A stretch of 26,786 nt of DNA, from contig JAQCBM010000001.1 in assembly GCA_027729865.1 (NCBI GenBank), positions 1 to 26,786 of the forward strand, given 5' to 3'. This DNA is from Actinomycetota bacterium. Its GTDB lineage: Bacteria > Actinomycetota > Actinomycetes > S36-B12. A model generated the notes under the pieces. It was not told the origin of the DNA and made no database searches. It saw nothing but the letters and a program-made list of their open reading frames with translations. The position numbers and the translations under genes are program-made. This document shows, in pieces, positions 659 through 22,828 of the stretch; position 1 is the stretch's first letter; the number at the start of each line of letters is the position of its first letter.

Positions 659-1390
659 TTAGCGGGTGCGCAGGATGACGAACTGGAAGCGCCCCTCGAC
701 AAAGTAGGTCTTGCTGTACGCGACGGGTTCACCGGATCGGTCGTAGTGCACCTGGTCGAGGAGAATCAGAAGTTCGTCAGCAACGTGATCTTCTGCGATA
801 GGCACATCGCTGCCGCGCACGGCGTGGATCTCGGCCAGTGCACGGTTGGGAGTCAAGCCGATTCGGTCGAGCACAGCGAACACTGATCCATTGCCCAGTG
901 ATACGTCCTCACTCGCTGGAACCAGGTTCCCCGGAATAGCGTCGATGGAAATGGCCACCACTTCGCCATCGGCGAGTATCTCGCGGTGCACGGCCACGAT
1001 CTCGTCGTTGGCGTTCACGTCCAAACGTGCGCACTCGTTCTCGTCGGCCTGCCGCCGAGTGAGCGAAATCCGACGCACCTTCGCATCCAGACCAAGTTCC
1101 TCGATCGTCTCGGTGATCGAGCGCAGTTCCTGAAGACCCGATCGGATTTGGCCGCCGAAGTCCACTACGAACATGCCCGAACCGTGACGGATGTCGACCA
1201 GCCCCTGGGATTCCAGCGACTTCGCCGCAGTGCGAACTGTTACGCGGGACACCCGATAGCGCTCGCACAACTCCGCCTCGCTGGGCAGCCGGGAGCCGGG
1301 CGAGAACTCACCAGCGACGATGCGCCGGCGTAGGTCCTCGGTGATCTGCCGGGCGAGCGGGGTGCGGGGGGTTGTGGTGGAACTGGGCAT
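659..1390 (-). CDS. GntR family (HutC/UTRA subfamily) transcriptional regulator
   Basis: GntR wHTH (LPSEAELCERYRVSRVTVRTA...GSGMFV) plus C-terminal UTRA-like domain (SKTYFVEGRFQF). Start trimmed to ATG at 1390, preceded by SD GGGAGGAG; divergent from mtnA. Confidence 0.92.
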   Translation of the reverse strand: MPSSTTTPRTPLARQITEDLRRRIVAGEFSPGSRLPSEAELCERYRVSRVTVRTAAKSLESQGLVDIRHGSGMFVVDFGGQIRSGLQELRSITETIEELGLDAKVRRISLTRRQADENECARLDVNANDEIVAVHREILADGEVVAISIDAIPGNLVPASEDVSLGNGSVFAVLDRIGLTPNRALAEIHAVRGSDVPIAEDHVADELLILLDQVHYDRSGEPVAYSKTYFVEGRFQFVILRTR

Positions 1391-1424
1391 GACGGTGTCT
1401 CCTCCCTGCGTTAGCCTAGCGGCG

Positions 1425-1439
1425 AGTTGTAGGACAACT
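1425..1439. promoter_or_regulatory. Palindromic operator AGTTGT-AGG-ACAACT, probable binding site of the adjacent GntR
   Basis: Perfect 6-bp inverted repeat with a 3-nt spacer in the 66-bp gntR/mtnA intergenic region. Core GTA-G-GAC fits GntR-type GT(A/C)-N0-1-(G/T)AC palindromes. Lies just downstream of a candidate -10 (TAGCCT, 1412-1417). Confidence 0.68.
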
Positions 1440-1456
1440 GTTGTGTTGGAGGCAAA

Positions 1457-2497
1457 GTGTCGGAGATCCGGGCGGTTCGCTGGGATGCGCACTCGATCGT
1501 GCTCATCGATCAGACGAAGCTGCCGGCGGTCGAGACCGCTATGGAGTGCGCCACCGTCGATCAACTGGTGGACGCGATCGTCCGCCTGGTGGTTCGCGGT
1601 GCTCCGGCACTCGGCGCGGTCGGTGGATACGGCGTGGCCCTGGCGATGATCCAAGGTGAGCGCGACGGCTGGGATTCCACGCGGTTGAACGCGGAGATCG
1701 ACCGGATTCGAAATGCGCGACCCACTGCGGTGAACCTGGCGTGGGGAGTGGACCGGGTGCGTCCGTTGGTAAGTGACGGCGTGGACGCAGTACTTGCCGA
1801 AGCGCAGCGCATCGCAGATGAAGACGAAGCCGCTAATCGTGAACTCTCACGCAAGGGCGCGGACTGGATTCTCGCGAACACCACGCGTCGTCCGTTGCGG
1901 GTGTTAACCCACTGCAACACCGGATCTCTGGCAACCACCGCGTGGGGAACGGCACTGGGCATCGTGCGCGAACTCCACGGGCGCGGTGAGATCGAAATGG
2001 TTTACGCCGATGAGACGCGGCCGTTGCTACAAGGATCGCGGTTGACCTCGTGGGAACTCACCCAAGACGGAATTCCGCACGTGGTGCAGGTGGATGGCGC
2101 TGCTGCGTCCACGCTGCTGCGCGGTTTGGTGGATGTAGCGATCATCGGCGCCGATCGCATTGCGCGTAACGGCGACACCGCGAACAAGATCGGTTCGGTG
2201 GGTGTGGCACTGGGTTGTTCGGCCGCTGAGGTGCCGTTTGTGGTCGCGGCTCCGTCGTCGACAGTGGACCTGTCCACGGCCTCGGGTGAATCGATCGAGA
2301 TCGAACTGCGCGATGGCGCAGAGGTGACCGAGTTCCATGCCGAATCCGTGGCGCCGGAGGGAGCCAAAGGATTCAACCCGGCTTTCGATGTGACACCCGC
2401 GCAGTACATCTCGGCCATCGTGACCGAGCAGGGAGTCGTGGAACCAGCCGCTGGTGTGCTGGTGGACTCCCTCGTGCCGGAAGGGGAACGTCCATGA
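1457..2497 (+). CDS. mtnA: S-methyl-5-thioribose-1-phosphate isomerase (MtnA / eIF-2B-like family)
   Basis: Motifs LIDQTKLP, VRGAPALG, RPTAVNL, LTHCNTGSLAT, ETRPLLQGSRLT, GADRIARNGDTANKIG, NPAFDVTP; SD GGAGG before GTG. Confidence 0.92.
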   Translation: MSEIRAVRWDAHSIVLIDQTKLPAVETAMECATVDQLVDAIVRLVVRGAPALGAVGGYGVALAMIQGERDGWDSTRLNAEIDRIRNARPTAVNLAWGVDRVRPLVSDGVDAVLAEAQRIADEDEAANRELSRKGADWILANTTRRPLRVLTHCNTGSLATTAWGTALGIVRELHGRGEIEMVYADETRPLLQGSRLTSWELTQDGIPHVVQVDGAAASTLLRGLVDVAIIGADRIARNGDTANKIGSVGVALGCSAAEVPFVVAAPSSTVDLSTASGESIEIELRDGAEVTEFHAESVAPEGAKGFNPAFDVTPAQYISAIVTEQGVVEPAAGVLVDSLVPEGERP

Positions 2498-4482
2498 GCA
2501 ACGAAGCCATGCCAACAGCGCTGACCGAACTCGTTCAACGCTCCAACCGCATCGGAGACGACCCTTCCCTCGTTGTCTACGGAGGCGGCAACACCTCTGC
2601 TAAAGGTGTGATCGTTGATCACCTCGGCCGCGAGCAACAGGTGATGTGGGTTAAGGGATCCGGTGCGGACATGCGCGGGTCGGTTCTTTCCGACTACCCG
2701 GGTCTGCGCCTTGGCGAACTCACCGCACTGCGTGAACGCGGTGAGATGAGCGATGAGGAGATGACCGACCTCGTTACCCGTGCGCTGTTAGATCCATCCT
2801 CTCGCCGGCCATCGATCGAAACGCTGCTGCATGCGTTCTTGCCGTTCACCCACATTGACCATGTGCACGCCGATGCGATCTGTGCGCTTACCAACCACGC
2901 TGAAGGCAAGAAGATCACCCTTGAGGCGCTTGGCGAGGGATTCGCCTACGTGGACTGGCTGCGTCCGGGTTTCGAGCTCAGCAAGATCGTCGGTGAGCTC
3001 TCGCACTACGAGGGAGTAGTGCTTGCGCACCACGGGCTGATCACCTGGGGGGATTCTTCCGCTGCGTGCTACCAGCGCACTATCGACGTGGTGGATCAAG
3101 CGCGCGAGTTCGTTGCGGCCAACCGTGTTGGCGCCGGACCGCCGCCGCGCCATGACGACATCCCCGAGGACGAATTGCGTCGATTGCTGTTGCACCTGCG
3201 CGGTGCGGTGAGCGCAACGGGTCACCGAGTCCTGCGGGTGGACGAACGATTGCGTGAGGTTGCCGATCATCCGCAGGTGGACAAGATCGTGGCCGGTGGT
3301 GTGTCGAGTGCCGACCACATGTTGCGCATCAAGCCGCGCTCCGTGGTTGTTCCCTCGGTTGATCACGTGAGCTCGTCTGTTGGGGCTTACCGCGATGAGT
3401 ACCTCGCGTATGTGGAACGCAACCACGAGTTGATGCCGGAGGGTTTCGGACCGCACGATCCGATGCCGCGCGTGATGCTGGTGCCGGGCGTGGGTGCGGT
3501 GACGACCGGAACCTCAGGCAAGGACGCTGCCGTTGCCGCGGACATCGCTGTACACACGCACGACGTTGCGCGGACCGTGCTCGAGGCATTCGGAACACCC
3601 GAGCCGTTGAGTGGTCGGGAGACTTTCCGCTTCGATTACTGGCCGATGGAGCTCTACAAGCTCACGCTTAAGCCCGCGCCGGCCGAGTTCGCCGGACGAA
3701 TCGTGATCGTGACGGGTGCGGCATCAGGGATCGGTCGCGGGATCGCGCTGGAGTTGGGTGCGCGGGGGTGCTCGTTGGTCCTTGCGGACCTCGATGCCAA
3801 TGGTCTGGACGAGGTTGCAGGTTCCCTCGTTTCCGCGGGCGCGCCTGAACCCGTGGTGGTGGCCGGAGATCAGTCCGACTCGTCGGTCACCTCAGCCACG
3901 GTTCACCGTGCGGTGCGGCACTTCGGTGGGCTGGACGGCGTGGTGCTGAACGCGGGCGTGGGCGTCTCTGGGACGTTGACGGAACTGACCGACGAGCAGT
4001 GGAACACCGCACTGCAGGTGAACCTGACGAGCGCGTTCTCACTCACCCGTGAATCGATGCGCGCGATGCAAGAACAGAGTCTAGGCGGTTCCCTGGTGTT
4101 CGTTGCGAGCAAGAACGCTTTCGGTCCCGGTGCCGGCTTTGGTGCTTACTCGGTGTCCAAGGCCGGGATGATCCAACTGATGCGCATCGCAGCACTCGAA
4201 GGTGGCAAGCACCAGATCCGATCCAATGCGATCAACCCCGACGCGGTATTCGACAACTCGAAGTTGTGGGAGGGGGGCTTGCGTGAAGAGCGTGCAGCAG
4301 CCCACGGCATCGCACCGGAGGAACTCGAAGACTTCTACGCCTCACGCAACTTGCTCGGTCGCCGAGTGACCACGTCAGACGTTGCGCAGTCCGCAGCCTT
4401 CTTGCTGTCCGATCGTTCCTCGCGGACCACGGGTTCGGTCCTTACGGTGGACGGCGGGGTAGCGGTCGCGTTCCCGCGGTAG
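2494..4482 (+). CDS. Bifunctional class II aldolase / short-chain dehydrogenase (RhaD-ADH, RhaEW/YuxG-like fusion)
   Basis: N-terminal class II aldolase: YGGGNTSAK, VKGSG, RPSIETLLH, HIDHVHAD, HHGLITWG (Zn-binding His). C-terminal SDR: TGAASGIG, NAG, YSVSK. ATGA overlap with the mtnA stop. Substrate not certain. Confidence 0.86.
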   Translation: MSNEAMPTALTELVQRSNRIGDDPSLVVYGGGNTSAKGVIVDHLGREQQVMWVKGSGADMRGSVLSDYPGLRLGELTALRERGEMSDEEMTDLVTRALLDPSSRRPSIETLLHAFLPFTHIDHVHADAICALTNHAEGKKITLEALGEGFAYVDWLRPGFELSKIVGELSHYEGVVLAHHGLITWGDSSAACYQRTIDVVDQAREFVAANRVGAGPPPRHDDIPEDELRRLLLHLRGAVSATGHRVLRVDERLREVADHPQVDKIVAGGVSSADHMLRIKPRSVVVPSVDHVSSSVGAYRDEYLAYVERNHELMPEGFGPHDPMPRVMLVPGVGAVTTGTSGKDAAVAADIAVHTHDVARTVLEAFGTPEPLSGRETFRFDYWPMELYKLTLKPAPAEFAGRIVIVTGAASGIGRGIALELGARGCSLVLADLDANGLDEVAGSLVSAGAPEPVVVAGDQSDSSVTSATVHRAVRHFGGLDGVVLNAGVGVSGTLTELTDEQWNTALQVNLTSAFSLTRESMRAMQEQSLGGSLVFVASKNAFGPGAGFGAYSVSKAGMIQLMRIAALEGGKHQIRSNAINPDAVFDNSKLWEGGLREERAAAHGIAPEELEDFYASRNLLGRRVTTSDVAQSAAFLLSDRSSRTTGSVLTVDGGVAVAFPR

Positions 4483-4488
4483 TTGCTC

Positions 4489-5592
4489 CTACTGGCGTAG
4501 GGCTTCGACCATCGCACGCGAGTTTGTTGCGAGATCACCGCGGTGGAGCGCTCCGCCGATGAGAAGCGCGACGTTATCTCCGTAGAACTCGGTGAGTTCA
4601 CCGAGGCGGTCCAACGTCATGCCACCGCCCGGGCTTGGCCACGATCGCGCCAGGTTGCCCAGGGGTGCGTGGCATAGGTCCTTGATCTGCGCGCATTCGG
4701 CGGGTGAGAACGAGAATCGGCCGCCGTAGTTCGGAAAGATCGAGATGTCCGCTCCCGCTAGGCGCATCAAGGTCCCGAAAAGGATGCCGTGATCGATGCC
4801 CTGATCAGGGTTGACAACGTTCGATCCCAGGAACGATGGATGCGCCATGATCGGTAAGGCCAGGGAATCGTCGTCGGCCAGCATGCGCATCGCGTCGAAT
4901 CCCGACACCCCAGGAAGCACCAAGAGTGCACCAGCGCCGGCCTCCTTGGCCTCGTGCGCGGCATCGACGATCCGATCGGCGGGAACGTTCAAACTCGGCA
5001 TGTAGAGCGCGTTGGTTCCGGCTTGTTCACGTGCTTGATTGACGTGCTCTGCGATGACTCGAGTGCGTTCCTTCCAACGCGCCCACGGTTGATCGGCAAG
5101 ACCGTGGTCGTCTTTGATGATGTGGAAGCCAGCGCGGGTGATGGTCGCGGCCATCTCGCCGAGTCCTTGCGGATCGGTGCCCATCGGCTTCACCGCGGTG
5201 CAGACAAGTGGACCGGTGGGGGCATCGACGAGCGCGCGAAGTCCGTCGATGCCAAAGCGCGGACCACGAAAATCCGCGAGGTAGGAATCCGGCAAACGTA
5301 GGCCGGTGACGCGAACGCCCGGGAAGAGCGACACATTCCCCCACAGCACATTCAGCAGTTGAGTGATGCCGCCGCCGGCAACGCCGGGGTTGTAGGAAAT
5401 CGTGACGTTGTTTCCGCTGATGTTCTCAATGCGACCGACGACGGTTTCCTGGATCCACTCCGGAGCCAGATCGAACGGGAATTCGATGGTCTGCTCGACG
5501 CGGATCGCATCGGCGACTTCCCTGGAATCTCCAACCGAGATTCGGTAGTCGACAACGATGCGGTCTGCTGAGCCCGACGCGCTCGTTGTCAT
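4489..5592 (-). CDS. RuBisCO-like protein (form IV), resembling the R. rubrum 5-methylthioribulose-1-phosphate 1,3-isomerase type
   Basis: VEQTIE, NVLWGNVSL, GPRFGIDGLR, AVKPMG, IKDDHGLADQ (KDDH rather than KDDE), AHP, FPNYGGRF, PGGGM, LIGG. 367 aa, shorter than a true RbcL. ATGA-coupled to the upstream transketolase subunit. Confidence 0.9.
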   Translation of the reverse strand: MTTSASGSADRIVVDYRISVGDSREVADAIRVEQTIEFPFDLAPEWIQETVVGRIENISGNNVTISYNPGVAGGGITQLLNVLWGNVSLFPGVRVTGLRLPDSYLADFRGPRFGIDGLRALVDAPTGPLVCTAVKPMGTDPQGLGEMAATITRAGFHIIKDDHGLADQPWARWKERTRVIAEHVNQAREQAGTNALYMPSLNVPADRIVDAAHEAKEAGAGALLVLPGVSGFDAMRMLADDDSLALPIMAHPSFLGSNVVNPDQGIDHGILFGTLMRLAGADISIFPNYGGRFSFSPAECAQIKDLCHAPLGNLARSWPSPGGGMTLDRLGELTEFYGDNVALLIGGALHRGDLATNSRAMVEALRQ

Positions 5593-6629
5593 AGTGCTTC
5601 GACCTTGGCGCTGCTGTGGGTGGCGGCAACGCGAACCGGTGCGAGGTCGGCTGCATCGATACCGAACGTGCGTCCAAGGGCTTGTTCGGCTGTGCGCACT
5701 AAAGACATGGCGTCGAGGTCGTACTCGCGCAGCAGGTAGGCCTGCGACGCGCCATGTGCGTAGGTGTCGGGCAGCCCGATGCGGTGCAGCGGAGCTGCAA
5801 TGCCGTTCTCGGCCATAACCTCGGCTACCGCCGAACCCAAGCCACCGGTGATCAGGTGGTTCTCCATGGTGATCACACCGCTACGCGCACTACGCAGCGC
5901 TGTGAGCACGGTGGGATCGGTGAAGGGCTTGAGGGTTGAGACGTGCAGATGCGTGACTCTTGCGCCTGCATCTTGCAGCGCAGGAATGGCACGAAGTGCC
6001 TCTTCGGTTTCGATCCCGGACGTGAGCACCACGAGGTCCGCCGGATCCTCGATCGAGCTACCGGCGACCGACAGCACTCGTGCGGTGTTGAAGCGCATCG
6101 GCTCGGGGAACAGGCGCGGCACTTCGCCACGCAGCATGCGGATGTAGACCGGACCGTCGATGGCGTGCGCAACATCAAGCACGCTCTCCACCTCGGTGGC
6201 GTCGCCGGTTTCCAGGATCGTCATGTTCGGGATAGTTCGCATCACTGCAACGTCGTCGATCGCCTGGTGGGTCACGCCACCGGGAGTGGTGATACCGGGC
6301 AGGAAGCCGACCAGGCGCACCTTCAGGTTCGGGTACGCGATGGACATCTGCAGTTGATCGAGTGGGCGGCGGTACAAGAACACTGCGAACGTGTGCAGCC
6401 ACGGTTCGAAACCTTCGCGAGCGAGCCCAGCAGCGAAGCCGAGCATGTTCTGTTCGGCCATGCCCATGGAGAAGAAGCGCTCGGGGTAGGTGTCGCGCCA
6501 CTTGCCGACTTCGCACGAGTTGGTGAGGTCCGCGCTGAGCACCACAACCTCGGGCTTATCGGCCGACCAACGAATGAAGTTCTCTACGTGTGGGCGGCTG
6601 ACGATCTCTACGTCCGTTTTCGCGCTCAT
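5589..6629 (-). CDS. Transketolase-family C-terminal (pyrimidine-binding + C-terminal domain) subunit
   Basis: LSADL, PERFFSMGMAEQNM, THQAIDD, GPVYIRMLR, TLKPF, ENHLITGGLGSAVAE; ATGA overlaps at both ends. Confidence 0.9.
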   Translation of the reverse strand: MSAKTDVEIVSRPHVENFIRWSADKPEVVVLSADLTNSCEVGKWRDTYPERFFSMGMAEQNMLGFAAGLAREGFEPWLHTFAVFLYRRPLDQLQMSIAYPNLKVRLVGFLPGITTPGGVTHQAIDDVAVMRTIPNMTILETGDATEVESVLDVAHAIDGPVYIRMLRGEVPRLFPEPMRFNTARVLSVAGSSIEDPADLVVLTSGIETEEALRAIPALQDAGARVTHLHVSTLKPFTDPTVLTALRSARSGVITMENHLITGGLGSAVAEVMAENGIAAPLHRIGLPDTYAHGASQAYLLREYDLDAMSLVRTAEQALGRTFGIDAADLAPVRVAATHSSAKVEAL

Positions 6630-7537
6630 GAAGTGGCTCCGATCAGAACGTCGTCGTAGAACTTCTGGTACTCGGCTCGTTCCTCAGGACCGGTGAAGCG
6701 CAGGTAGTGCAAAACAGGTCGACGATCATTGAGCAGCGGCACACCGCGCGCGGGATCGGTATACGCGAGGACGAAGTGCGGTTTGCCGGTGGGGCGTTCG
6801 AGCGATGAGGTGAGAGCCGCGATGTCGTGGCCATCGACCGAGTCCACACTCGCACCGAATGCCTTGAGTTTGGTTGCTAGCGGTTCGATTGTCATGACCG
6901 AATCCATCGGGCCATCGCACTGCGCGCGATTTACATCGACCACCACGCGCACCGTGTCGAGTCGATAGAAGGCAAGTGCCTGGATTGCTTCCCAGGTTTG
7001 CCCTTCTTGGAATTCACCGTCGCTCATGAACACGAACGTGCGACCGGTCTCCTTCTTCAAGCGCCGACCCAGGGCGATGCCGCCGGCGGTGGACAGCGCT
7101 TGCGCGAGGGACCCTGTGGTGGTTTCGAAGCCGGGCGAGTGTTCGGCGCCGATCATCTCGACGGTGGAACCGTCTTTGTTGAACTGATCGAGTGCGGCCT
7201 CGTCCAGGCGCCCGGCCTCGATGAGTGCTGCGTAGACCACCAGGGCGTAGTGCGCGGGGGAGACGATCAACCGGTCGAGGTCTGGACCCGGCTCGCCGTG
7301 GAATACCCCGCCGGATACGCGCGGGGCGTCTGGTCCGGGAACAGCCTCGATGGCAGGCGGGTGCAGCGGCCCGTCGGTGGGGGCGAGCTTGAGCACCGAG
7401 GCGTAGAGGGCGGCGAGCAGTTCGGCTGAGGAACAGGCTTGGCTGAGATAGCCGCCGTTGTTGGCCAGCACGTGGGCCAGGACCCGGCGGCGGATGCCCG
7501 CGGCCATGAGTGTGGGTTCGATTGTCGATTGAGGCAC
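6626..7537 (-). CDS. Transketolase-family N-terminal (ThDP-binding) subunit
   Basis: TGSLAQALS, ThDP motif [13 protein letters not shown]...DVN, VDGHD. Start set at GTG 7537 because a -35/-10 pair sits 6 nt upstream; ATG 7507 is the alternative. The longer ORF-track start at 7837 overlaps xylB. Confidence 0.87.
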
Positions 7538-7543
7538 GTGGCC

Positions 7544-7572
7544 AGGGTACAAAGAGGTAGGTCGTCCTACAA
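7544..7572 (-). promoter_or_regulatory. Housekeeping-sigma-type promoter of the transketolase-RLP operon, probably leaderless
   Basis: Minus strand reads TTGTAG (7572-7567) - 17 nt - TACCCT (7549-7544) - 6 nt - GTG (7537); no SD present. Confidence 0.62.
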
Positions 7573-7574
7573 GT
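7560..7574 (-). promoter_or_regulatory. Second copy of the putative GntR operator (ACTTGTAGGACGACC), overlapping the -35 element
   Basis: 12/15 identical to the 1425-1439 palindrome, with a perfect 9-bp core TTGTAGGAC. Confidence 0.62.
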
Positions 7575-7615
7575 CTGTATTTGTTCACCGGGGTGGATGT
7601 GGCACGGTTCCACCC

Positions 7616-9049
7616 ATGGCAGCAGAAAAACTCGTCGCGGGGGTAGATACCTCGACCCAGTCGGTGAAGGTGGTCGTGCGCGATGCGCAGACCGGGGCGT
7701 GGGTGCGCGAAGGTCGGGCGGCGCACCCCGATGGCACCGAGGTGGACCCCGGTGTCTGGTGGCAGGCGTTCGTGCAGGCGTGCTCGGGCGGATTGCTCGA
7801 AGGAGTGTCCGCGATCTCGGTTGCCGGCCAACAGCACGGCATGGTCGCTCTGGATGAAACCGGCGCTGTTGTGCGACCTGCGTTGTTGTGGAACGACACC
7901 CGCTCGGCTGCCGACGCAACTGAACTCACGGCCGAACTCGGTGGACCCGCAGCGTGGGCCGAAGCAGTGGGCAGCGTTCCCCTCGCCGCATTCACCGTCA
8001 GCAAGGTGCGGTGGATGGCGCGCAATGAACCGGACAACGCAGCGCGCACGTCAACGATCATGCTTCCGCACGACTACCTGACCTGGATGCTCGCCGATCG
8101 CCCGAATGACGCTGTTACCGATCGCGGCGATGCCAGTGGAACCGGCTATTGGTCGCCGGCAACCGGTGAGTACCGCCGCGACATTCTGATCGCGGCTCTT
8201 GGTCACGATGTTTCTTTGCCGCGCGTTGCGGGACCTTTCGAAGTGGTGGGCGAACTTGGTGGTCAAGCCCGCGCGCTACTGGGAATCAGCGGTAGCCATC
8301 CGATCCTCTTGGGACCGGGAACCGGCGACAACATGGGTGCGGCCTTGTCCTTGGGAATCGGTCCCGGTGACGTAGTGGTGTCTTTGGGAACCTCCGGAAC
8401 AGCCTTCGCAGGATCGGATGCGCCCACTGCGGATCCGACCGGACTTGTCGCAGGATTCGCCGATGCGAGTGGACGTTTCCTGCCGCTGGTGTGCACGTTG
8501 AATGCCGCCCGAGTGCTCACGAGCACCGCGGAATTGCTGGGCGTGGATATGAACGAGTTCGCACGACTCGCTCTGAGCGCCGCACCTGGTGCCAGTGGGT
8601 TGACGATGCTGCCGTACTTCGACGGTGAGCGGACACCGAACCTTCCTGATGCGCGCGGCTCGCTGCACGGCATCAGCCGCGACAATCTGACACCTCCCAA
8701 CATCGCGCGAGCGGCAGTCGAAGGCATGCTCGGTGGCCTCGCCGACGCGGTTGATGCGCTGGTGGATGTGGGTGTGGAACCCCGGCGCGTTCTGCTAGTC
8801 GGTGGTGCTGCTGCGAATCCTGCTGTGGTCGAGGTTGCAGCGACGTTGGTCGATGCCCCGGTGGAAGTTCCGCCGGCCGGCGAATACGTGGCCGACGGGG
8901 CTGCCCGCCAAGCCGCATGGGTTCTGTTGGGGGACGGTATGCCGGCGTGGCCGGCTGTGCGTGAAGGTGAGACAGATCGGCGCGACGCGAACCCGGTGTC
9001 GCAGGTTCGGCTCCAGTACCGAGATGCCCGGGAGGCTTTGTACTCGTGA
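7616..9049 (+). CDS. xylB: FGGY-family carbohydrate kinase, xylulokinase-like
   Basis: [52 protein letters not shown]. Start trimmed to ATG 7616 ([11 protein letters not shown]). Confidence 0.85.
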
Positions 9050-10245
9050 TCGAAGGGGGAGGACTCTCGCGGGTACTGCGCGCACTGCACGCCGCGGGAG
9101 CCCTGACCCGCTCCGATCTCGGTTCCTTGACCGGTTTGAATCGCAGCACTGTTGCCACGATCGTCAATGAACTCGTCGCCGCAGGCGTAGTCGAAGAAGG
9201 CGCCGGTGCTTCCGGTGGGGTGGGTCGGCCGTCACTAGTGGTGCGGGCGGTCCCCGATTCGGTTGCCGTCATCGGATGGGACATCCGTGCGGATTCCAGT
9301 ACCGCAGTAGTGGAAGGAATCGGGGGACAGATCCTGCATCGATGGTCGAAGGCGCATCGTCGCGGCTCCACCGATCCGTATGAGGTTGCCGCGCGCGTGG
9401 TCGCGGGGAGTTCGCAGATTGCTGAGGAACTGCCCGACCACGTGCTGTGGGTTGGCGTGGGGTGCGCGCTGCCCGGGATCATCGACCCCGGAGGTGACCC
9501 GCCGCGCAGCACCATCCACCGCGCGCCAACACTTGGCTGGGTGGATACGCCCTTCGGCGTGATCTTGTCCGAAGCGATGAGCGAGCAGTTCGGTTCCCAG
9601 GTTCCGGTTGTGCTCGGCAACGACGCGAACCTCGGTGCGATGGCCGAGTGGACACGCGGCGCCGGAAAGCGAAGCCGCGTGATGGTGTTCGTCTCGGGCG
9701 ATGTAGGTATCGGTGGTGGCGTGATCGTCGACGGTGAACCGTTGACGGGCGCATCCGGATTTGCCGGCGAGATCGGTCACATTCGCTTCGATCCCAATGG
9801 TGCTCCGTGTCGATGCGGTTCGCGCGGATGCTGGGAGACGGTGATTGGTCTGACCACCATCGTGTCCGCCGCTGGACTGGATCCTCTCAAGGCAGGAATC
9901 GACGACGTCCTATCGGCTGCGCAGGCAGGTGATGCGACGTGTCAATCGGCGCTCGCTGCCGCTGCCCGCGCGGTGGGCCAAGGTTTGGCACCGGTGGTGA
10001 ACATGGTGAACCCCGACACCATCGTGTTAGCCGGGCATCTCGAGGTTCTCTTGGAGCACTACCGACACACGATCATCGAGGAATTGCGCTTCACCCTGTC
10101 TCGTGAAAGCACGGATATCCGCGTCGTAGGACCAGCTCTTGGGTCCGACAGCATCGTGGTAGGTGCCGCCGAACTCGCCTTTGAGCGAGCACTCGATCGA
10201 CCGCAAAGGTGGCTGACTGCGCCGGAATCACTCCGAAGCGAATAA
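9046..10245 (+). CDS. ROK-family transcriptional repressor (XylR-like)
   Basis: N-terminal HTH ([17 protein letters not shown]), [20 protein letters not shown]...[10 protein letters not shown] Zn motif; GTGA overlap with the xylB stop. Confidence 0.9.
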
Positions 10246-10428: not shown

Positions 10429-10485
10429 CCTGGTCTCGCTAGGCGCGAGACTCGTGTTCCCTGGTCTCGCTAGGCGCGAGACTCG
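10429..10485. repeat. Tandem duplication of a 26-bp hairpin-forming unit (31-bp period)
   Basis: CCTGGTCTCGCTAGGCGCGAGACTCG at 10429-10454 and 10460-10485. Each copy contains the stem GTCTCGC-N5-GCGAGAC. The second copy contains the stop codon of the 515-aa gene. Confidence 0.9.
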
Positions 10486-12017
10486 AACATCCCCAGCAGG
10501 GCTGCCACCCCCAGCACCGAGCGCGGTGCGTAAGCCGCACGCCACAGTCCGCCGTGGTTCGCGCCTCTGGCGAACAGATCCATGGGATTGGTGAGTGGGG
10601 TGGCCGGGTTGGCTGACGACGCCGGGTTGCGCAGATCGTGCACGAGCATGGCCGCCATCAAAGTGGTTGAGGTCGATGGGTCAAAAACCTCCACACCGAA
10701 CTTGTCGGCACCTGCGTACGCAGCGGCGAGCGCTCGGTTGCGGACAACGGAGCGCGTGCGCGTTGCTGGAGCGAGGTTCAGCGAGACGGGAATGCCGTCC
10801 GCACGAGCGGCGAGCGCCCGCCACCGTTGGATGCGCTTGGCCAAGATGTAGTTCGGTCCTTGCTGGGGAATGATCGAATCATTCAAGCCGATGCGTTGAC
10901 CGCTGAGCGTTGTGTATGTGGTCGGGTAATTGGGTTCGAACTGGTTCGCAATTCGCAGCGGGGCCTGCAGCAGACCACCGATACCTCTATTACCCCAGCG
11001 CCGCTTGCTCTCCTCGACGCATTCGATGGGAACGACGAACACGTCGGTGGGAGTGGCCAGGAACGCCAGCGTTAGGTCGGAGCGCTCAGCTGCAAGGGAA
11101 GTTGTGATCGCATCGCTGGCCACGGACAAAAGCGCATGCGTTGCTCCGTCGGCATACGCATAAGTGCCGAGAACAAAGGGTTGGTCGATCTCGGATAGCC
11201 AGGTGCGGACCTCGGGTGCTTGTGTCAGAAGGTCGGCACCGGCTGATGCGCAGATCGTGGCGTCGTCGTCGGGATGAACATCCCCGCCCACCACGAAAGG
11301 TGGATTTCCCTCGGCATCCAGGGAGATTGGAATGCGCAATGTTCCAGCAGTGCTGCGGGTGATGGAAGTCAGGTGCTCCCAGATCGCCGGGCGCGGGAGA
11401 TCAACCGCGTGCACACGAGCACCCCAGCGAAGAAGTGATCGGGTGGGTGCCATCTCCGCGCCGGCTCCGAGCAAGGCGATGTCGATATCGCGTAGGTCGA
11501 GCCAATCGGGGTTGTCCATGACGAGGTGGATCGCTGCACCGAAGGACGGTTCGGCTATTCCACGTTGGACCCACGAGTCGACCTGACGTCGCAGTTCGTC
11601 GCCGAATAAGCGGCGTCCTTTGTAGGGGACAGAAAGGTCTTCATCCCGGGTGGATCGTCCTCTGACGGTTACCGAAGCCAGCCCGGGTGCAGTGAATTCC
11701 GTGAAGGCTTCGCGTAGCGATACCTCGTTCCCGTTTCGACGGAAGGTGAAACGCTGGTCGGTCGATGCCAGTCCGTGCCGGGAAATCGACAGCGCGTTCT
11801 CCGTCGATTGCGCAGCAGCTAGGACTATGTCGCGTAATGGGGCGATGTATCCCTTGCGCCAATCGCGAGTGTGCTCGATTCGAGGAGTAATGGCTGGATC
11901 CACTGCGCGGATCGAATCGGCGAAGATTGCTCGCCCGGTTGCCGAAGTGCTGCGCCGATCATCCCCGCCTAGCGGGAAACACACACCGTCCACGTTCACG
12001 GAGCGGGGATCGGGCAT
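10470..12017 (-). CDS. Hypothetical protein with Rossmann/SDR-like motifs
   Basis: 515-aa ORF; leaderless signature TATTCT-N6-ATG; IDIALLGAGAE glycine-rich motif, VHAVD, and YxxxK (NYILAK). Function unknown. Confidence 0.75.
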   Translation of the reverse strand: MPDPRSVNVDGVCFPLGGDDRRSTSATGRAIFADSIRAVDPAITPRIEHTRDWRKGYIAPLRDIVLAAAQSTENALSISRHGLASTDQRFTFRRNGNEVSLREAFTEFTAPGLASVTVRGRSTRDEDLSVPYKGRRLFGDELRRQVDSWVQRGIAEPSFGAAIHLVMDNPDWLDLRDIDIALLGAGAEMAPTRSLLRWGARVHAVDLPRPAIWEHLTSITRSTAGTLRIPISLDAEGNPPFVVGGDVHPDDDATICASAGADLLTQAPEVRTWLSEIDQPFVLGTYAYADGATHALLSVASDAITTSLAAERSDLTLAFLATPTDVFVVPIECVEESKRRWGNRGIGGLLQAPLRIANQFEPNYPTTYTTLSGQRIGLNDSIIPQQGPNYILAKRIQRWRALAARADGIPVSLNLAPATRTRSVVRNRALAAAYAGADKFGVEVFDPSTSTTLMAAMLVHDLRNPASSANPATPLTNPMDLFARGANHGGLWRAAYAPRSVLGVAALLGMFESRA

Positions 12018-12043: not shown

Positions 12044-13060
12044 TCAGTCGCGGCTATCGACGCCGAGAACCGTGTCTCGTTCCTTGGGTTTGCGTGGTGC
12101 TCGGGACCTCTCGGCAAGAATTACACCGATCAAGATGAATGCACCACCGATCAATTGCACGAGCGAGAGGGCTTCGGACAGCACGATCCACGCGACGATG
12201 ATCGCGAGCAACGGTTCGGTTAACCCCACCACCGAGGCTTGTGAAGCTCGTAGGTGACGCATCGATGCGACCACAAGCCAGAACGGGACCACGGTTCCCA
12301 TCACGATCATCCACACGCTCAGCAGCCACAGCGGGCGGTCACCGATGATCCCGCCGAGCGACGGATCGCTCGCGCCGCTGAAGTCCGACCACGGGAATGA
12401 CCACCAGGGTTGGGCGATCACCCAGAAGAGTGCCGCGAAGCCGAAACCCCACATGGTGAGCGACACTGGATCCCGCGGCTCAGCCATGCGTACCTGCCGG
12501 TCGGTGATGATGTAGTACGTACTCAAGGCCAGAGCGGCTCCGAACGCAGCTACCAAGCCGATCGCATCGAAGCTGAAACCTCTCCACACTTCGGCAACGA
12601 GCGCGAGCCCGATCAGTGCGATGGTGAGGGCCAACCACACAGTTGCTCGGGTGGGTTCCTTCAGGACGAAGCGGAACCACAGCGTGACGAAGACCGGTGC
12701 AGTGAACTCGATCAGGAGCGCAACACCAACGGGCAGGTACTGCAGCGCGACGAAGTACAGGTACTGGGTCATGGATACCCCGAGCACGCCATATGCAACG
12801 AGGTAAGGCCATTCACCCCGTTTGATTTTCAAGCGCTCAGGGCGCTTGATGGCGACGAACGCAAGAAGGATAAGGAACGCACCCGTGACGCGTAGTTGTG
12901 ACAGGCGCGCAGGGTCGAGACCACTGAGCAATATGGCTTTGGAGACCGTGCCGTTGATGGCGAAGGTCAGCGCACCGAGCAAATAGAGCACATAACCGAG
13001 GAAGAGCAATCGGTGAGGTGCGGGTTTGACTCCCGGTAAGGGTTCTGCGACGTCGCTCAT
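12044..13060 (-). CDS. EamA/DMT-family membrane transporter
   Basis: About 10 hydrophobic segments in two repeats; YFVALQYLPVGVALLIEFTAP and LTEPLLAIIVAWIVLSEALS..QLIGG. Start trimmed to ATG 13060, which gives an ATGA overlap with the glgA stop. Confidence 0.9.
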   Translation of the reverse strand: MSDVAEPLPGVKPAPHRLLFLGYVLYLLGALTFAINGTVSKAILLSGLDPARLSQLRVTGAFLILLAFVAIKRPERLKIKRGEWPYLVAYGVLGVSMTQYLYFVALQYLPVGVALLIEFTAPVFVTLWFRFVLKEPTRATVWLALTIALIGLALVAEVWRGFSFDAIGLVAAFGAALALSTYYIITDRQVRMAEPRDPVSLTMWGFGFAALFWVIAQPWWSFPWSDFSGASDPSLGGIIGDRPLWLLSVWMIVMGTVVPFWLVVASMRHLRASQASVVGLTEPLLAIIVAWIVLSEALSLVQLIGGAFILIGVILAERSRAPRKPKERDTVLGVDSRD

Positions 13061-14241
13061 GTGTGTGCGTTGCGCCGTTCGCTCAGGGCCCAGCGATACA
13101 CATCCATGGTCTGTTCGGCGATTGCGCCCCAACTGAAGTGCTCGATCGCGCGCGTTCGCCCGTTCTTGCCATAAGCGGCGGCCTTTGCTTCGTCACTCAT
13201 GAGTTCGTTTACCGCTGCAGCGAATGCCTGCTCGAACGCTTGCTCGTTACTCGGGTCGTAAGGAACCAGGGTGCCGGTCACGCCGTCTTCGACGACCTCG
13301 GGAATGCCGCCCACCGCGCTGGCTACTACGGCCGTCTCGCAGGCCATGGCCTCGAGGTTCACGATGCCCAGAGGTTCGTAGATGGATGGACACGTGAACA
13401 CCCGCGCGTGCGTGAGTAGTTCGATCAGGCTGTCCTTATCCACCTGCTGCTCGATCCAGATCACCGAATCGGGGCGGCGCTCGGCGCGAAGGATCTCAAT
13501 CGCTTGGGCCGTCTCCGCAGCGATCTCAGGAGTGTCGGGCGAGGATGCGCACAACACAAGGTTCACGTTCGCGTCGAAGTTTCGCGCCGAGCGCAGCAAA
13601 TGGATGAGCCCCTTCTGGCGGGTGATGCGGCCGACGAACAATGCGTAGGGACGTGACTGATCGATACCGAAACGCTCAAGCACGGCGGTGTTTGCGTGCG
13701 GGCGGTAGATGTCGGTGTCGATGCCGTTATGGACTACGTGGACCTTGGCTGGATCCACATCGGGATACGCACCGAGAATGTCTGCCTTCATCCCATTACT
13801 GACCGCGATGATCGCATCGCTGGATTGGCAACTGGTGCGCTCGACCCACGATGAAATCTCGTAGCCACCTGCGAGTTGCTCGCGCTTCCACGGCCGAAGC
13901 GGTTCGAGTGAGTGCGCGGTGAGCACATGCGGAATATCCAGCAGCAAGGAAGCGAGGTGTCCGGCCAGGTTTGCGTACCAGGTGTGCGAGTGCACCACGT
14001 CGGTTGCTGCATCGATCGAGGCGACCATGCCGAGGTCCACGCCCAGGGTCTGCAGCGCCGGATTCGCATCGCGCAGGTAGTCGGGTACTGGGTGAGCAAG
14101 CGCATCTGGCCTCGGTTGACCGAAGCATTGAACGGTCACTTCAGCGAGTTCACGAAGATGCGCCACAAGTTGGTCGACGTGTACTCCGGCGCCACCGTAG
14201 ATGTCCGGTGGCCATTCCCTGGTCAGCATGGCTATGCGCAC
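13057..14241 (-). CDS. glgA: GT4 glycosyltransferase GlgA (actinobacterial GlgM, alpha-maltose-1-phosphate synthase type)
   Basis: [70 protein letters not shown] 14241 lies 8 nt after a TAGGCT -10. Divergent from glgC as in other actinobacteria. Confidence 0.92.
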
Positions 14242-14290
14242 AATCACGAAGCCTAGGTGCGGGACAGTCCAACCCCGATACCCTGGGAAG
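14242..14290. promoter_or_regulatory. Back-to-back leaderless promoters for glgA and glgC
   Basis: Minus strand TAGGCT (14255-14250) before the glgA GTG; plus strand TACCCT (14279-14284)-N6-GTG for glgC; no SD on either side. Confidence 0.55.
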
Positions 14291-15511
14291 GTGGGCGCCG
14301 AGCCGCACGTTCTCGCGATGGTCCTCGCCGGTGGCGAGGGCAAGAGGTTGATGCCCTTGACCGCCGATCGAGCCAAGCCGGCCGTTCCCTTCGGTGGTTC
14401 CTACCGCCTGATCGATTTCGTGCTGTCGAACTTGATCAACTCCGGTCTGCGGCGCGTGTGTGTGCTCACCCAGTACAAATCCCACTCACTTGATAGGCAC
14501 GTGACCCAGACCTGGCGGATGTCCACGCTATTGGGGGACTACGTCACACCGGTACCGGCGCAACAGCGCCTCGGACCCCGGTGGTTCACCGGTAGCGCCG
14601 ACGCGATCTTCCAGAGCCTGAACCTCGTGTACGACGAGAACCCCGAGTACGTAGCCGTCTTCGGAGCCGATCACGTGTATCGCATGGATGCGATGCAGAT
14701 GGTCGAGGCGCATATCGATAGTGGTGCCGGGGTGACCGTCGCGGGTATTCGAACCCCGCGGAATCAGGCGCACAGCTTCGGTGTGATCGAAGTGGCCCCG
14801 GATGGCCGCACCATTTCGAAGTTCCTGGAGAAGCCGGCCGATCCACCGGGTATCCCCGGGAGTGAAGACGAATCGTTCGTCTCGATGGGCAATTACGTCT
14901 TCTCCACCGACGTACTGCTGGAAGCACTGCGCGCTGACGCAGCCGATCCGGCGTCCGTGCATGACATGGGCGGCAACATCATTCCGGCGCTGACCGCGCA
15001 GGGTTTGGCGCAGGTGTACGACTTCGCAGAGAACATCGTTCCGGGAGCAACCGCACGCGATTCCGGCTACTGGCGCGATGTGGGAACGCTCGACAGTTAC
15101 CACGATGCACATATGGATCTGGTGTCCGTGCATCCGATATTCAACCTTTACAATCGCCGCTGGCCAATTCTCACGAACCTACCGCCGTTACCTCCGGCCA
15201 AATTCGTGGAAGGTGGCAATGCGCACGATTCCATGGTGGGTGCCGGCAGCATCGTGTCCGGTGCACATGTGCGAACGAGTGTGGTGGCATCGAATGTGGT
15301 GATCGGCGCTGGTGCCTACGTGGAAGGCAGCGTCATCATGCCCGGCGTGCGGATCGGGCGAAACGCTGTGGTCCGCCGCGCGATCTTGGACAAAGGCGTG
15401 GTGGTGCCGGACAACGTGCAAATCGGGGTTGACCTCGAACGCGACCGAGGCCTATACACCGTGAGCGACGGAGGTGTGGTGGTGCTTGGCAAGGGTGTAG
15501 TGGCCGACTAG
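14291..15511 (+). CDS. glgC: Glucose-1-phosphate adenylyltransferase (ADP-glucose pyrophosphorylase)
   Basis: [64 protein letters not shown]-terminal beta-helix; start trimmed to GTG 14291. Confidence 0.96.
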
Positions 15512-15526
15512 GCGGAAATTCCGCTG

Positions 15527-15694
15527 TTAGAGGATCTCTTCGGAGAAAGCTCCGTTGTACAAGATCGCGTGATCTCGACCTTCCTCTGCAGCTAAAGACT
15601 CAGAGAGACGAGCTGCAGATAGCCACCCGCATGAACACACCGCCTGGACGAAGTGCTGCTGCACGCGTCGTAGGCACACCTCGTGTTGCATCAT
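15527..15694 (-). CDS. Small hypothetical protein (55 aa) with putative His/Cys metal-binding motif
   Basis: SD AGGAGA before ATGATG at 15694; MMQHEV...AVCSCGWLS...GRDH gives H-x15-C-x-C-GW-x17-H; fills the gap between glgC and the protease. Confidence 0.6.
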   Translation of the reverse strand: MMQHEVCLRRVQQHFVQAVCSCGWLSAARLSESLAAEEGRDHAILYNGAFSEEIL

Positions 15695-15838
15695 GGTCTC
15701 CTGCGGTGGTGCCGACTGTCGTTCCTCGTTCACAGGTTCTTGACTCCTCGGGCATCGCCTCGGTGCGAGCCCCATGGCACGCGTTGTGGAGCGTAAGGCG
15801 GCTTGGAACCCTCAAGGCAAAGGACGGATGAACGCCAG

Positions 15839-17191
15839 ATGAACGGCTCGACGGTGTCGCGGCGCGTGGGAACCTTCCTCACGCTTGTGCTGATGAGTCT
15901 GGTGTTGGCAGTGGCCAGCCCCGTGCCGCAGGCAACCGCGGTGGTGGGTGGAGCCCCCGTCGCGGTCGAGCAGGTGCCCTGGCAGGCCTTGGTGATCGTC
16001 GAACCGGATAACCGGCTGTGCGGCGGCGCGATCGTCGATCCGGGATGGCTGGTAACCGCGGCCCACTGCGTTGTCGGGTTCCGCGGGGATCAGGTCGAGG
16101 CGCACGTGGGCATAACGTCCCTATCCGAACGCAGCCCCGGCAATGAAGTGCAGGTTGCTGAGGTGATCGTGCACCCATCGTGGGATCCGGCGAACTTTCG
16201 CAACGACATCGCGCTCTTGCGGCTCGCTACTCCGCTGTCAACAAACGCACGCGCTCGATCCATTTCGCTTCCGGTCGGTCTGGACGCAGCGACCTGGCCT
16301 CCTGCCGGAACTCCGGCAGCAATCAGCGGCTGGGGAGCCACGGAATTCGGTGGTCAACCGTCCAACCAACTGCGCCGCGCTCAAGTGCAGGTGCTCGGTG
16401 GACCCGGGGACACCATCTGCGGCAGGTACGGCAGCAACTTCGCCGCTGATGTGGAGATCTGCGCAGGTGCTCCCAGTGGTGGAATCGACGCATGCCAAGG
16501 CGACAGCGGAAGTCCGTTGGTGGTGGATGTTGCGGGAACACCGATGCTGGCGGGTTTGGTCAGCGTGGGCTTCGAGTGTGCGCGGGCGGAATACCCGGGT
16601 ATCTACACGCGGGTGACCTCGTTCATCCCTTGGCTGCAGGGATATTTGCCAGCAGCCGTATCTGCGCCATCGGTGCCGCAGGAAGTCCTCGTTGAGCCAA
16701 TCGCCGGTGAGCGACTCGTGGCTCAGTGGCAACCGCCGGTGGTTGGCGTGCAGCCGGCCTCGTACCGAGCGGTGGCGCAACCGGGTGGTCAGCGGTGCGA
16801 GGTGGCGGCAAATGAGCCCGCCTGCTTTATCACCGACGTGACGGCCGGAAAGTTGTACGAGGTAGTTGTGACCTCGATCCTCCCCGGTGGTGGGGAGGTG
16901 TCAGCCGAGCCCGTGCAGGCGGTGAGCGTTGACGGGGTCACGTCCGTTGGCGCGGTGGTCAAATCTCGGCGGTTAGCGCAGTGGGCCGGGCTTACCGTGC
17001 GGGCGCGCGACGATGTTCGACTGGCGGTGCGTCCGGGATCTCGGGACGTGTGCGCGCGGGTGGGACGAACCACCTCACCGCGGGGCGTTCGCACGAAGGA
17101 CGCAGGTCTGTGTGCGGTGCGGGTGAGTGTGATCAGGCCGAACGGCAAGGCTTCACGGTCGATCGCGTACATCGACGTTCGCCAGCGTTGA
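15839..17191 (+). CDS. Secreted trypsin-like serine protease (S1) with fibronectin type III-like and C-terminal domains
   Basis: Signal peptide, then VVGG, LCGG, TAAHC, DIALL, DACQGDSGSP (triad His/Asp/Ser; S1-pocket Asp), PGIYTRV; Fn3-like PSVP...QWQPP...Y...LYEVVV. Start uncertain (15803 or 15839). Confidence 0.88.
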   Translation: MNGSTVSRRVGTFLTLVLMSLVLAVASPVPQATAVVGGAPVAVEQVPWQALVIVEPDNRLCGGAIVDPGWLVTAAHCVVGFRGDQVEAHVGITSLSERSPGNEVQVAEVIVHPSWDPANFRNDIALLRLATPLSTNARARSISLPVGLDAATWPPAGTPAAISGWGATEFGGQPSNQLRRAQVQVLGGPGDTICGRYGSNFAADVEICAGAPSGGIDACQGDSGSPLVVDVAGTPMLAGLVSVGFECARAEYPGIYTRVTSFIPWLQGYLPAAVSAPSVPQEVLVEPIAGERLVAQWQPPVVGVQPASYRAVAQPGGQRCEVAANEPACFITDVTAGKLYEVVVTSILPGGGEVSAEPVQAVSVDGVTSVGAVVKSRRLAQWAGLTVRARDDVRLAVRPGSRDVCARVGRTTSPRGVRTKDAGLCAVRVSVIRPNGKASRSIAYIDVRQR

Positions 17192-17204
17192 TGTGAGTTG
17201 CTGA

Positions 17205-18137
17205 TTAGGAGCGCGGCAGTTGGTGCTGCTCTACCGCATAGGCACGCGGACCGTCGGGTGTCCATTCCCGATGGATGATCACCATGCCACCGGGAGCAAG
17301 GCGGGTATCCCACAACGGATCGGCATGGGTGTCTTCCGGTGTGAGGTTCAACCCCGCAGCGAGAGCGGAGAGCACAGTCGGCAGGACGGGCCGATGAGTG
17401 CAGACAACCATGGGTGCTGGATCGACTAGTAACTCGGTGACGCGTTTCTCAGTAACCGAAGGATCGAATGCGTGCCCCGATTCACTGATGGCTGCCTCGA
17501 GCTGCACATCCACGCCGATCGATTTCGCGTAGCGGTTAACCGTTGACAGACACCTCTTGAACGGCGAGGAATACACCCGTTCGATTCCATAGGCATCAAG
17601 AACGTCGGTGAGTCGCTTGGCTTCACCCCTACCTCTGCCCGACAGGGGTCGATCGGCGTCGTCATCTCCATCGAAGTCAGCGCGCTTCATCGCCTTTGCG
17701 TGCCGCAGGATGATCAGCGGAGTTGTGGGGGGCGCGGTGATTGCGTGCTTCACTAAGGCAGCGTCGTCCGGGTAGGTCAAGAAATCCTCGGCACCGGACA
17801 CTGGCACCCAGCGGATCTCGTCTACTTCCTCATCGGGGGCGAATCCTTCGTCACCTCGCACGCGACCGATCCAGTAGTCGACGACCTTGTTCTGACCGTC
17901 CGCTGTGTAGTGCAAGCTGGGTAGGCGCGTTGAGAGCGAAACCTGGAAGCCGGTCTCTTCGTCGCATTCGCGCACGGCAGCGCACGGCAGTGTCTCGCCG
18001 GCATCCACCTTGCCTTTGGGAAGCGACCAGTCTTTGCGGCTGGGTCGATGGACTGCCAGGAAGTGCTGATCGGGGTCCATTTCCGGGTGGAAGACCACCA
18101 CTCCGGCGGCGCGGATCGGTTCAGTTTCCTTGGCCAT
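17205..18137 (-). CDS. mutT1: Nudix hydrolase - histidine phosphatase fusion (MutT1-like)
   Basis: WSLPKGKVDAGETLPCAAVRECDEETG Nudix box; C-terminal LRHAKA...RPLS...SSPFKRC phosphatase fold; TGATG overlap with the CHAD stop; downstream of ppk1. Confidence 0.85.
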   Translation of the reverse strand: MAKETEPIRAAGVVVFHPEMDPDQHFLAVHRPSRKDWSLPKGKVDAGETLPCAAVRECDEETGFQVSLSTRLPSLHYTADGQNKVVDYWIGRVRGDEGFAPDEEVDEIRWVPVSGAEDFLTYPDDAALVKHAITAPPTTPLIILRHAKAMKRADFDGDDDADRPLSGRGRGEAKRLTDVLDAYGIERVYSSPFKRCLSTVNRYAKSIGVDVQLEAAISESGHAFDPSVTEKRVTELLVDPAPMVVCTHRPVLPTVLSALAAGLNLTPEDTHADPLWDTRLAPGGMVIIHREWTPDGPRAYAVEQHQLPRS

Positions 18138-21798: not shown

Positions 21799-21849
21799 GC
21801 TGTCATGTTGCCACAGCGAAGTGAACAGACACCGTACGTAACCCGACGT

Positions 21850-22824: not shown

Positions 22825-22828
22825 GGTG

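Follow-up and report, generated by a model that had tools for sequence, protein, structure and literature searches.

The locus and its two palindromes

The 26,786-nucleotide stretch analysed here (the window) is contig JAQCBM010000001.1 (C106) of the Actinomycetota assembly GCA_027729865.1, which comprises 2.41 Mb in 416 contigs with 61% GC and is about 82% complete. It carries two convergent operons and, in the promoter region of each, one of a pair of closely related 15-mers, named here O1 and O2 (Table 1), which are predicted to be operators of a GntR-family regulator encoded at the same locus. The gene of this regulator, gntR, is divergent from the first operon, which encodes a protein of the MtnA isomerase family and a class II aldolase/short-chain dehydrogenase (SDR) fusion. 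The second operon, tktN-tktC-RLP, runs towards the first on the opposite strand and encodes a split transketolase followed by a RuBisCO-like protein (RLP). Next to tktN, and divergent from it, lie xylB and the gene of a ROK-family regulator. Gene identities come from Pfam and NCBIfam profile searches of the window proteins.

Table 1. Genes, candidate operators and conserved promoter-region elements of the locus, in window coordinates (ThDP, thiamine diphosphate; PWM, position weight matrix).
Feature	Position	Strand	Basis
gntR, HutC-subfamily GntR regulator, 243 aa, winged-helix and UTRA domains	659–1390	−	Pfam
Conserved TAGCCTA, putative −10 element	1412–1418		invariant in 15 spacers
O1, AGTTGTAGGACAACT, perfect 6-3-6 palindrome with arms around AGG	1425–1439		sequence match; best genome-wide PWM score
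mtnA, S-methyl-5-thioribose-1-phosphate isomerase family, GTG start	1457–2497	+	NCBIfam TIGR00512, 395 bits (cut-off 279); Pfam IF-2B
Class II aldolase/SDR fusion, 662 aa	2494–4482	+	Pfam Aldolase_II and adh_short
RLP, 367 aa, final gene of the tktN-tktC-RLP operon	4489–5592	−	Pfam RuBisCO_large
tktC, split transketolase, pyrimidine-binding and C-terminal half	5589–6629	−	Pfam Transket_pyr and Transketolase_C
tktN, split transketolase, ThDP-binding N-terminal half, 303 aa from the revised GTG start	6626–7537	−	Pfam Transketolase_N
Putative tktN −10 hexamer, TACCCT (TANNNT in all relatives)	7544–7549	−	fixed geometry in 16/16 spacers
O2, ACTTGTAGGACGACC read towards tktN (GGTCGTCCTACAAGT on the plus strand)	7560–7574	−	sequence match; second-best genome-wide PWM score
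Conserved element TGTGGCACGGTTCC, 3–4 nucleotides before the xylB start	7598–7611	+	nearly invariant in 16 spacers
xylB, xylulokinase	7616–9049	+	NCBIfam XylB (TIGR01312), 404.9 bits (cut-off 380.25)
ROK-family regulator	9046–10245	+	Pfam ROK and HTH

The GntR protein matches the family's DNA-binding domain (PF00392) with 75.4 bits against a cut-off of 27 over residues 12–75, and the UTRA effector domain (PF07702) with 72.6 bits against 23.8 over residues 99–235; an FCD domain is absent. The GTG start of mtnA is preceded by a Shine-Dalgarno sequence (GGAGG, 1448–1452), and the aldolase-SDR gene follows in the same direction with a 4-nucleotide overlap. Its product scores slightly below the cut-off of the NCBIfam RhaD_aldol-ADH model (546.6 bits against 567.75). 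The RLP falls under all NCBIfam cut-offs, and its best solved relative is 3qfw, an entry for a short (378-aa) RLP, which it matches over almost its full length with 204 bits.

O1 and O2 differ at 3 positions (12/15 identical) and have an exact 9-bp core, TTGTAGGAC, in common. A first-pass annotation of this DNA had drawn attention to the pair, and its coordinates, the perfect 6-bp arms of O1, the degree of identity and the core are all confirmed on the window sequence. The gene context that it gave also stands, except that the second spacer is the divergent tktN/xylB region and that the start of tktN has to be moved upstream (see below). Its estimate that an exact shared 9-mer would arise by chance in a few percent of cases is borne out in shuffled spacers (P of about 0.026), and a 15-mer within 3 mismatches of the first site arises in a shuffled second spacer with a P of about 0.001. 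Over the 26.8-kb window, 0.22 matches with at most 3 mismatches are expected, and the observed count was reached in 0 of 100 shuffles.

The case against chance is modest from the window alone and clearer genome-wide. In a scan of the 2.41-Mb assembly with a PWM built from the orthologous sites, O1 ranked first (27.8) and O2 second (24.4), and the next five scores, from 21.7 down to 17.7 (contigs C226, C236, C364, C128 and C24), all fall within long open reading frames (ORFs). Similarly, the exact 12-mer TTGTAGGACRAC is found only at the two promoters in the near-complete congeners G005, G006 and G017, and G012 and G002 have further matches, which lie within one orthologous coding gene of 583 aa. 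The sole other intergenic PWM match in the assembly (17.2, at C195:2429) was not counted, as it belongs to a rhamnose-like cluster with an FCD-type GntR of its own. This palindrome, AACGTGTCTGACAACTG (L071, G000:C195, 2429–2445), is situated upstream of genes for a sugar ABC transporter; the cluster also contains a dehydratase, a second aldolase-SDR fusion, an FGGY kinase and the GntR/FCD regulator, of which the palindrome is probably the site, with a similar GT-N3-AC core.

Conservation of the sites and co-occurrence with GntR

Phylogenetic footprinting, which the first-pass annotation had proposed as a check, was carried out on 15–16 congeneric metagenome-assembled genomes (MAGs) of the Nanopelagicales and was positive: both sites are kept upstream of the orthologous genes. 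The divergent gntR/mtnA arrangement is found in 15 of 19 congeners, the gntR orthologues being always divergent from mtnA. Over a range of GntR identities from 93% down to 61%, the 13-mer TTGTAGGACAACT of O1 is invariant in 15/15 orthologous spacers. The TAGCCTA core, embedded in a TGCG(T/C)TAGCCTA block, is likewise invariant in the 15 spacers, and the bases between and beside these elements differ both in identity and in number. At the 16 loci from which the tktN/xylB spacer could be retrieved, it always carries (A/G)GT(C/T)GTCCTACAA(G/C)T; in several relatives O2 is itself the perfect palindrome AGTTGTAGGACAACT, identical to O1. In one congener assembled into five contigs (G005, L037, C3:3883–8900), the tblastn matches are split, in two for the RLP and in three for the aldolase-SDR, and that of tktN ends at residue 272; these breaks look like frameshifts and are possibly long-read assembly errors rather than real pseudogenes.

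The sites extend beyond the genus. In a second family of the same order, with genomes of 1.2–1.4 Mb and 36–40% GC, both promoters carry the site, as TAGTTGTAGGACAACTAT in the gntR/mtnA spacer and as AACTTGTAGGACAACTAT before tktN, and neither xylB nor ROK is found near these loci. There, gntR is divergent from mtnA-aldolase/SDR, which is followed by an ABC transporter and an APH-type kinase and then by the convergent RLP-tktC-tktN. At L129:4207–9096 (and also at L126, L130 and L132) the mtnA-aldolase/SDR operon is extended by genes for a sugar-binding protein, an ABC ATPase, a permease and an APH-family (MtnK-like) kinase, four genes that are missing from the window, where the aldolase-SDR adjoins the RLP. 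The same two sites, again with no xylB or ROK nearby, are found in L123 (G574), from a genus with 68% GC that belongs to the family of the window. Upstream of its tktN (12222–12325), two operator-like copies, GTCGTAGGACAAC and GTTGTCCTAC, lie about 85 bp apart, and a double site may act there.

More distant loci comprise only the core genes gntR, mtnA and aldolase-SDR. They were found in two MAG lineages, Yinghuangia aomiensis, Wenjunlia vitaminophila and two further families of Actinomycetes, and so reach the Streptomycetaceae, with GntR identities of 41–55%. The corresponding promoters carry GTTGT-N3-ACAAC, in which the central triplet has become CAG, CTG or ATG. The GC content of genomes with the sites spans 36–68%, or up to 71% with the core-only loci. 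Although the shared 9-mer, taken by itself, leaves some room for a likeness of the two spacers due to chance, conservation in two families over this range of base composition, and with a fixed promoter geometry, refutes that explanation, whose probability is practically nil.

Natural controls are provided by genomes in which the components of the locus have been separated. The palindromes could in principle be bound by the ROK regulator, or by another non-local regulator, as O2 sits in the spacer common to tktN and xylB-ROK. However, a congener that is 93% complete and is without gntR and the tkt cluster (G002) retains xylB (84% identity) and ROK (81%), and its xylB upstream region retains TGTGGCACGGTTCC but not the palindrome. 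Conversely, sites are present at the ROK-less loci of the second family. Co-occurrence of the site with ROK and xylB therefore breaks down in both directions. Moreover, there are only two sites per genome, both by gntR, and O2 lies anywhere between 23 and 46 nucleotides from the xylB-proximal element, depending on the relative, which indicates that O2 belongs to the tktN promoter. Taken together, these observations make control through ROK or another non-local regulator very improbable.

The complementary control comes from four genomes that are 86–94% complete (G531, G553, G535 and G538) and in which a search at E ≤ 1e-15 found no GntR orthologue. All four keep mtnA-aldolase/SDR and the RLP, two of them also tkt, and the operator is absent from their promoters. 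Expression may be constitutive in these genomes or under another regulator. At the corresponding loci (L125, L127, L128 and L131), the promoters of tktN have a TANNNT box that follows a hairpin resembling a terminator. Wherever a GntR orthologue adjoins mtnA, by contrast, the site is present. The site thus tracks the presence and absence of the gntR gene, which is the usual comparative-genomic signature of the operator of a local regulator. The proposal of the first-pass annotation that the local GntR, not the ROK protein, acts at both operons therefore gains support from three sides: sites without ROK, G002 without a site, and the four GntR-less genomes without a site.

The element TGTGGCACGGTTCC is separate from the GntR operator and travels with xylB-ROK. 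It contains the hexamer CACGGT at 6 nucleotides (7 in the window) from the xylB start codon, a geometry matching that of the tktN −10 box, and it may serve a leaderless xylB as an extended −10-like promoter, or be a ROK site; a genome-wide search for it as a possible ROK operator found no second clear copy. Together, xylB and ROK behave as a module of their own, which is probably outside the regulon. Directly downstream of ROK, a 515-aa ORF (10470–12017, minus strand) matches no Pfam family at E ≤ 0.001. The region that follows (12044–24525) has a housekeeping-like content, with genes for an EamA transporter, a GT4 glycosyltransferase, a GlgC-like nucleotidyltransferase, a trypsin-like protease, a NUDIX/His-phosphatase, a CYTH-CHAD protein, polyphosphate kinase, a GNAT protein, GlnR and a hydrolase, and no copies of the motif were found in it.

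Promoter geometry and proposed mechanism

All 16 tktN spacers show the same fixed order of elements: an in-frame ATG or GTG, 6 nucleotides, TANNNT, 10 nucleotides, and the operator. The pentamer CTTTG just before the −10 hexamer is invariant. Since an in-frame start lies 6 nucleotides past the hexamer in every spacer, the start of tktN is better placed at the GTG at 7537, ten codons upstream of the ATG at 7507, and the tktN messenger RNA (mRNA) is probably leaderless. Leaderless mRNAs are common in Actinobacteria. O2 then lies at about −37 to −23 of the leaderless start, with its TTGTAG at the −35 position. The promoter drawn in the first-pass annotation, TTGTAG-N17-TACCCT, agrees with the conserved −10 box and its fixed spacing, and the promoter positions assigned there hold. 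A terminator-like 5-bp inverted repeat that the sigma-70 promoter scan flagged in O2 (GTAGG-ACGA-CCTAC) was dismissed, as it is found only in the window and its nearest relatives.

In the gntR/mtnA spacer, the conserved TAGCCTA contains a −10-like hexamer in each direction, TAGCCT for mtnA and TAGGCT for gntR, so that the divergent promoters of the two genes would overlap. O1 is positioned at about +1 to +15 of the predicted mtnA transcript and, in the opposite direction, at about −19 to −33 of the predicted gntR promoter. All three operator positions would suit repression by occlusion. Metatranscriptome contigs from three RNA runs contain low-depth short pieces of gntR, mtnA, aldolase-SDR, RLP, tktC, tktN and xylB; these contigs are uninformative on starts, strand and level, and DNA carry-over is possible, so the RNA data were set aside and used as evidence in neither direction.

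The same geometry bears on the possibility that the motif is no protein operator at all. TTGTAG resembles the −35 hexamer TTGACA, and O1, if transcribed, would form a 6-bp stem with a 3-nucleotide loop at the 5′ end of the mtnA mRNA, so that a promoter element or an RNA hairpin in the mtnA leader might be considered. O1, however, is downstream of its −10 box and cannot be a −35 element there, and O2 is upstream of a leaderless start and thereby outside the tktN mRNA. In addition, many copies of O2 have changed position 2 from G to C, with position 14 remaining C, a non-compensatory change that fits degenerate half-sites and not an RNA stem. A promoter element or hairpin would also leave unexplained that presence of the motif tracks the gntR gene, and the chance that either accounts for the motif is slight indeed.

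The reading preferred here is that both 15-mers are operators of the HutC-type GntR encoded beside them, to which we assign a probability of about 0.85 on the comparative evidence. From it we infer a mechanism that comprises binding to the DNA, the direction of control, the elements of the promoters and the effector. A GntR dimer on O1 would sit on the transcription start of mtnA-aldolase/SDR; because O1 also lies between the −35 and −10 positions of the predicted gntR promoter, the same dimer would repress gntR as well (autoregulation). A dimer on O2 would cover the −35 position of the leaderless tktN-tktC-RLP promoter. Binding of a pathway metabolite to the UTRA domain would release the repressor and thereby induce both convergent operons at once. 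The likeliest effector would be a phosphorylated 5-methylthio- or 5-deoxy-pentose, that is, 5-methylthioribose-1-phosphate, 5-deoxyribose-1-phosphate or the corresponding ribulose-1-phosphate.

Several observations weigh against this reading. The first concerns the operator core. The site TTGT-AGG-ACAA fits the GntR-family consensus NyGTNxACNy with TKGT/ACMA boxes (PMC4494728). Most HutC motifs, however, have the form GTMTAKAC, with 4 nucleotides between GT and AC, and FadR motifs typically have 3, although exceptions among HutC members are listed (PMC4494728). The GT-AC spacing is 3 nucleotides at every site in every lineage examined, and the HutC core GTMTAKAC is not found; such a spacing is atypical for, though compatible with, a UTRA-domain protein of the HutC subfamily. 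Second, a scan of positions 1300–7700 with an Escherichia coli-type sigma-70 consensus found no promoter, so that the promoter assignments rest on the conserved TANNNT hexamers and their geometry. Third, the genus-level genomes are related and their counts are not independent, independent support coming from about five or six more distant lineages.

Finally, a site over a −35 position could in principle serve activation. GntR might bind both sites and yet activate, or act dually, at the tktN promoter in the manner of a class II activator: the sole −35-like hexamer of this promoter, TTGTAG, is part of O2, and the DHAP-shunt promoter of E. coli (DHAP, dihydroxyacetone phosphate) has an activator site centred at −35.5 (PMC12632272). 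By contrast, the characterised HutC/UTRA regulators NagR and DasR are repressors that are released by sugar phosphates (PMC4333415, PMC4918961), and O1 over the mtnA start is in a repressor position. In genomes that have neither GntR nor the site, tktN keeps a TANNNT-type promoter, which suggests that this promoter does not need an activator. Activation at tktN is accordingly considered unlikely, if somewhat less so than the involvement of ROK, and repression from both operators remains the preferred interpretation.

Predicted regulon and comparison with known systems

The distribution of loci suggests that gntR, mtnA and aldolase-SDR form the older core of the regulon and that tktN-tktC-RLP is an optional addition in some Nanopelagicales lineages; whenever GntR is present, the added operon carries the same operator. 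The first-pass annotation had placed both operons under GntR and in one pathway. One predicted regulon is well supported; one pathway is a stronger statement than the data, though a reasonable inference. It had also suggested a genome-wide motif scan for the missing kinase, phosphorylase or transporter, and in this respect the PWM scan yielded no further member of the regulon in the 82%-complete assembly, all next-best matches lying in long ORFs. An MtnP-like gene (C39:3934–4641; 243.5 bits, below the cut-off of 274.85) did not surface in the scan, no PWM match of at least 12 being listed for C39, and MtnK was not found in this assembly.

The operator pair, very probably a pair of GntR sites, would link the RLP and the split transketolase to the breakdown of methylthioribose or 5-deoxyribose, and argues strongly, on genomic grounds, that all four enzymes work on one family of by-product sugars of S-adenosylmethionine. 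More tentatively, and with less than even odds, the product of MtnA (5-methylthio- or 5-deoxy-ribulose-1-phosphate) might have two fates within one inducible regulon, namely an aldolase-dehydrogenase cleavage of the DHAP-shunt type and an RLP/transketolase branch, with GntR sensing a phosphorylated intermediate common to both. In the second branch, the RLP would isomerize the MtnA product to a 1-substituted xylulose-5-phosphate, which the split transketolase would then cleave. The proposed transketolase would take the place of the cupin methylsulfurylase in the known Rhodospirillum route. No description of such an RLP/transketolase branch was found.

The switch itself, a local HutC-type repressor with a palindromic operator, is conventional, and its value lies in what it says about function. 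Predicted co-regulation in two families, from 36 to 68% GC, ties an uncharacterized RLP and an atypical split transketolase to mtnA and the aldolase-dehydrogenase in abundant, uncultured aquatic actinobacteria. Purified GntR would offer a handle for screening sugar phosphates for the true pathway intermediate. No paper on this regulator or on this set of genes came up in a literature search.

Among systems acting on similar genes, the sole experimentally studied regulator of a DHAP-shunt operon that was found in the literature is MtnR (YjhU) of E. coli, a DeoR-family repressor that acts together with CRP on the mtnK-mtnA-ald2 operon and is relieved by the substrate sugar (PMC12632272). Both systems place an operon with mtnA and a class II aldolase under a local regulator, the E. 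coli operon serving the breakdown of 5′-deoxynucleosides and 5-deoxypentoses. The regulator described here is, however, a GntR protein with a UTRA domain and shows no DeoR membership, which would make it a non-orthologous replacement and add a second type of regulator for DHAP-shunt-like genes beside the DeoR-type MtnR. For MtnR, moreover, the operator has not been defined, and no RLP or transketolase operon is under its control.

In its layout, the predicted system resembles those of local repressors of the HutC, TreR and PhnF type, known from comparative-genomic reconstruction (Suvorova et al. 2015, PMC4494728), with which it shares the family consensus, a single site in a divergent spacer placed slightly nearer the structural operon, and autoregulation. 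The best solved relatives of GntR are NagR (2wv0/4wwc, 53 bits) and DasR (4zs8, 48 bits). Like NagR (YvoA) of Bacillus subtilis and DasR of Streptomyces coelicolor, it combines a winged helix with a UTRA domain, and, as with their dre sites, a near-palindrome of about 15 bp lies in the promoter of each target operon and in that of the operon encoding the regulator itself, a relationship that is predicted here. O2 is an imperfect palindrome, as natural dre sites often are (PMC4333415). Unlike NagR and DasR, with which protein identity is low, GntR has a predicted regulon of two local operons rather than one of amino-sugar genes or a global one.

The differences extend to the DNA contacts. The dre palindrome of NagR, GTGGTCTAGACCAC, has its half-sites GTGG and CCAC six bases apart, and in the NagR–DNA structure Arg38 reads G-5, Arg48 reads G-4 and Gly69 of the wing contacts G-7 (PMC4333415). 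The half-site is AGTTGT here as against GTGGT in dre, so that GTTG corresponds to the GTGG of dre, and the half-sites are 5 nucleotides apart (GTTG-TAGGA-CAAC) instead of 6. In the sequence alignment, Arg49 and Gly70, which do not vary among 8 orthologues, occupy the positions of NagR Arg48 and Gly69, and Ala39 stands in place of Arg38. At the base that Arg38 reads as G in dre, the operator has T, which, as judged from the alignment, parallels the change from Arg to Ala. This agreement between residues and half-sites is a consistency check rather than proof. The locus would therewith provide a predicted HutC-subfamily operator whose half-sites are 1 bp closer together than those of dre, paired with an Arg-to-Ala replacement at a known base-contacting position.

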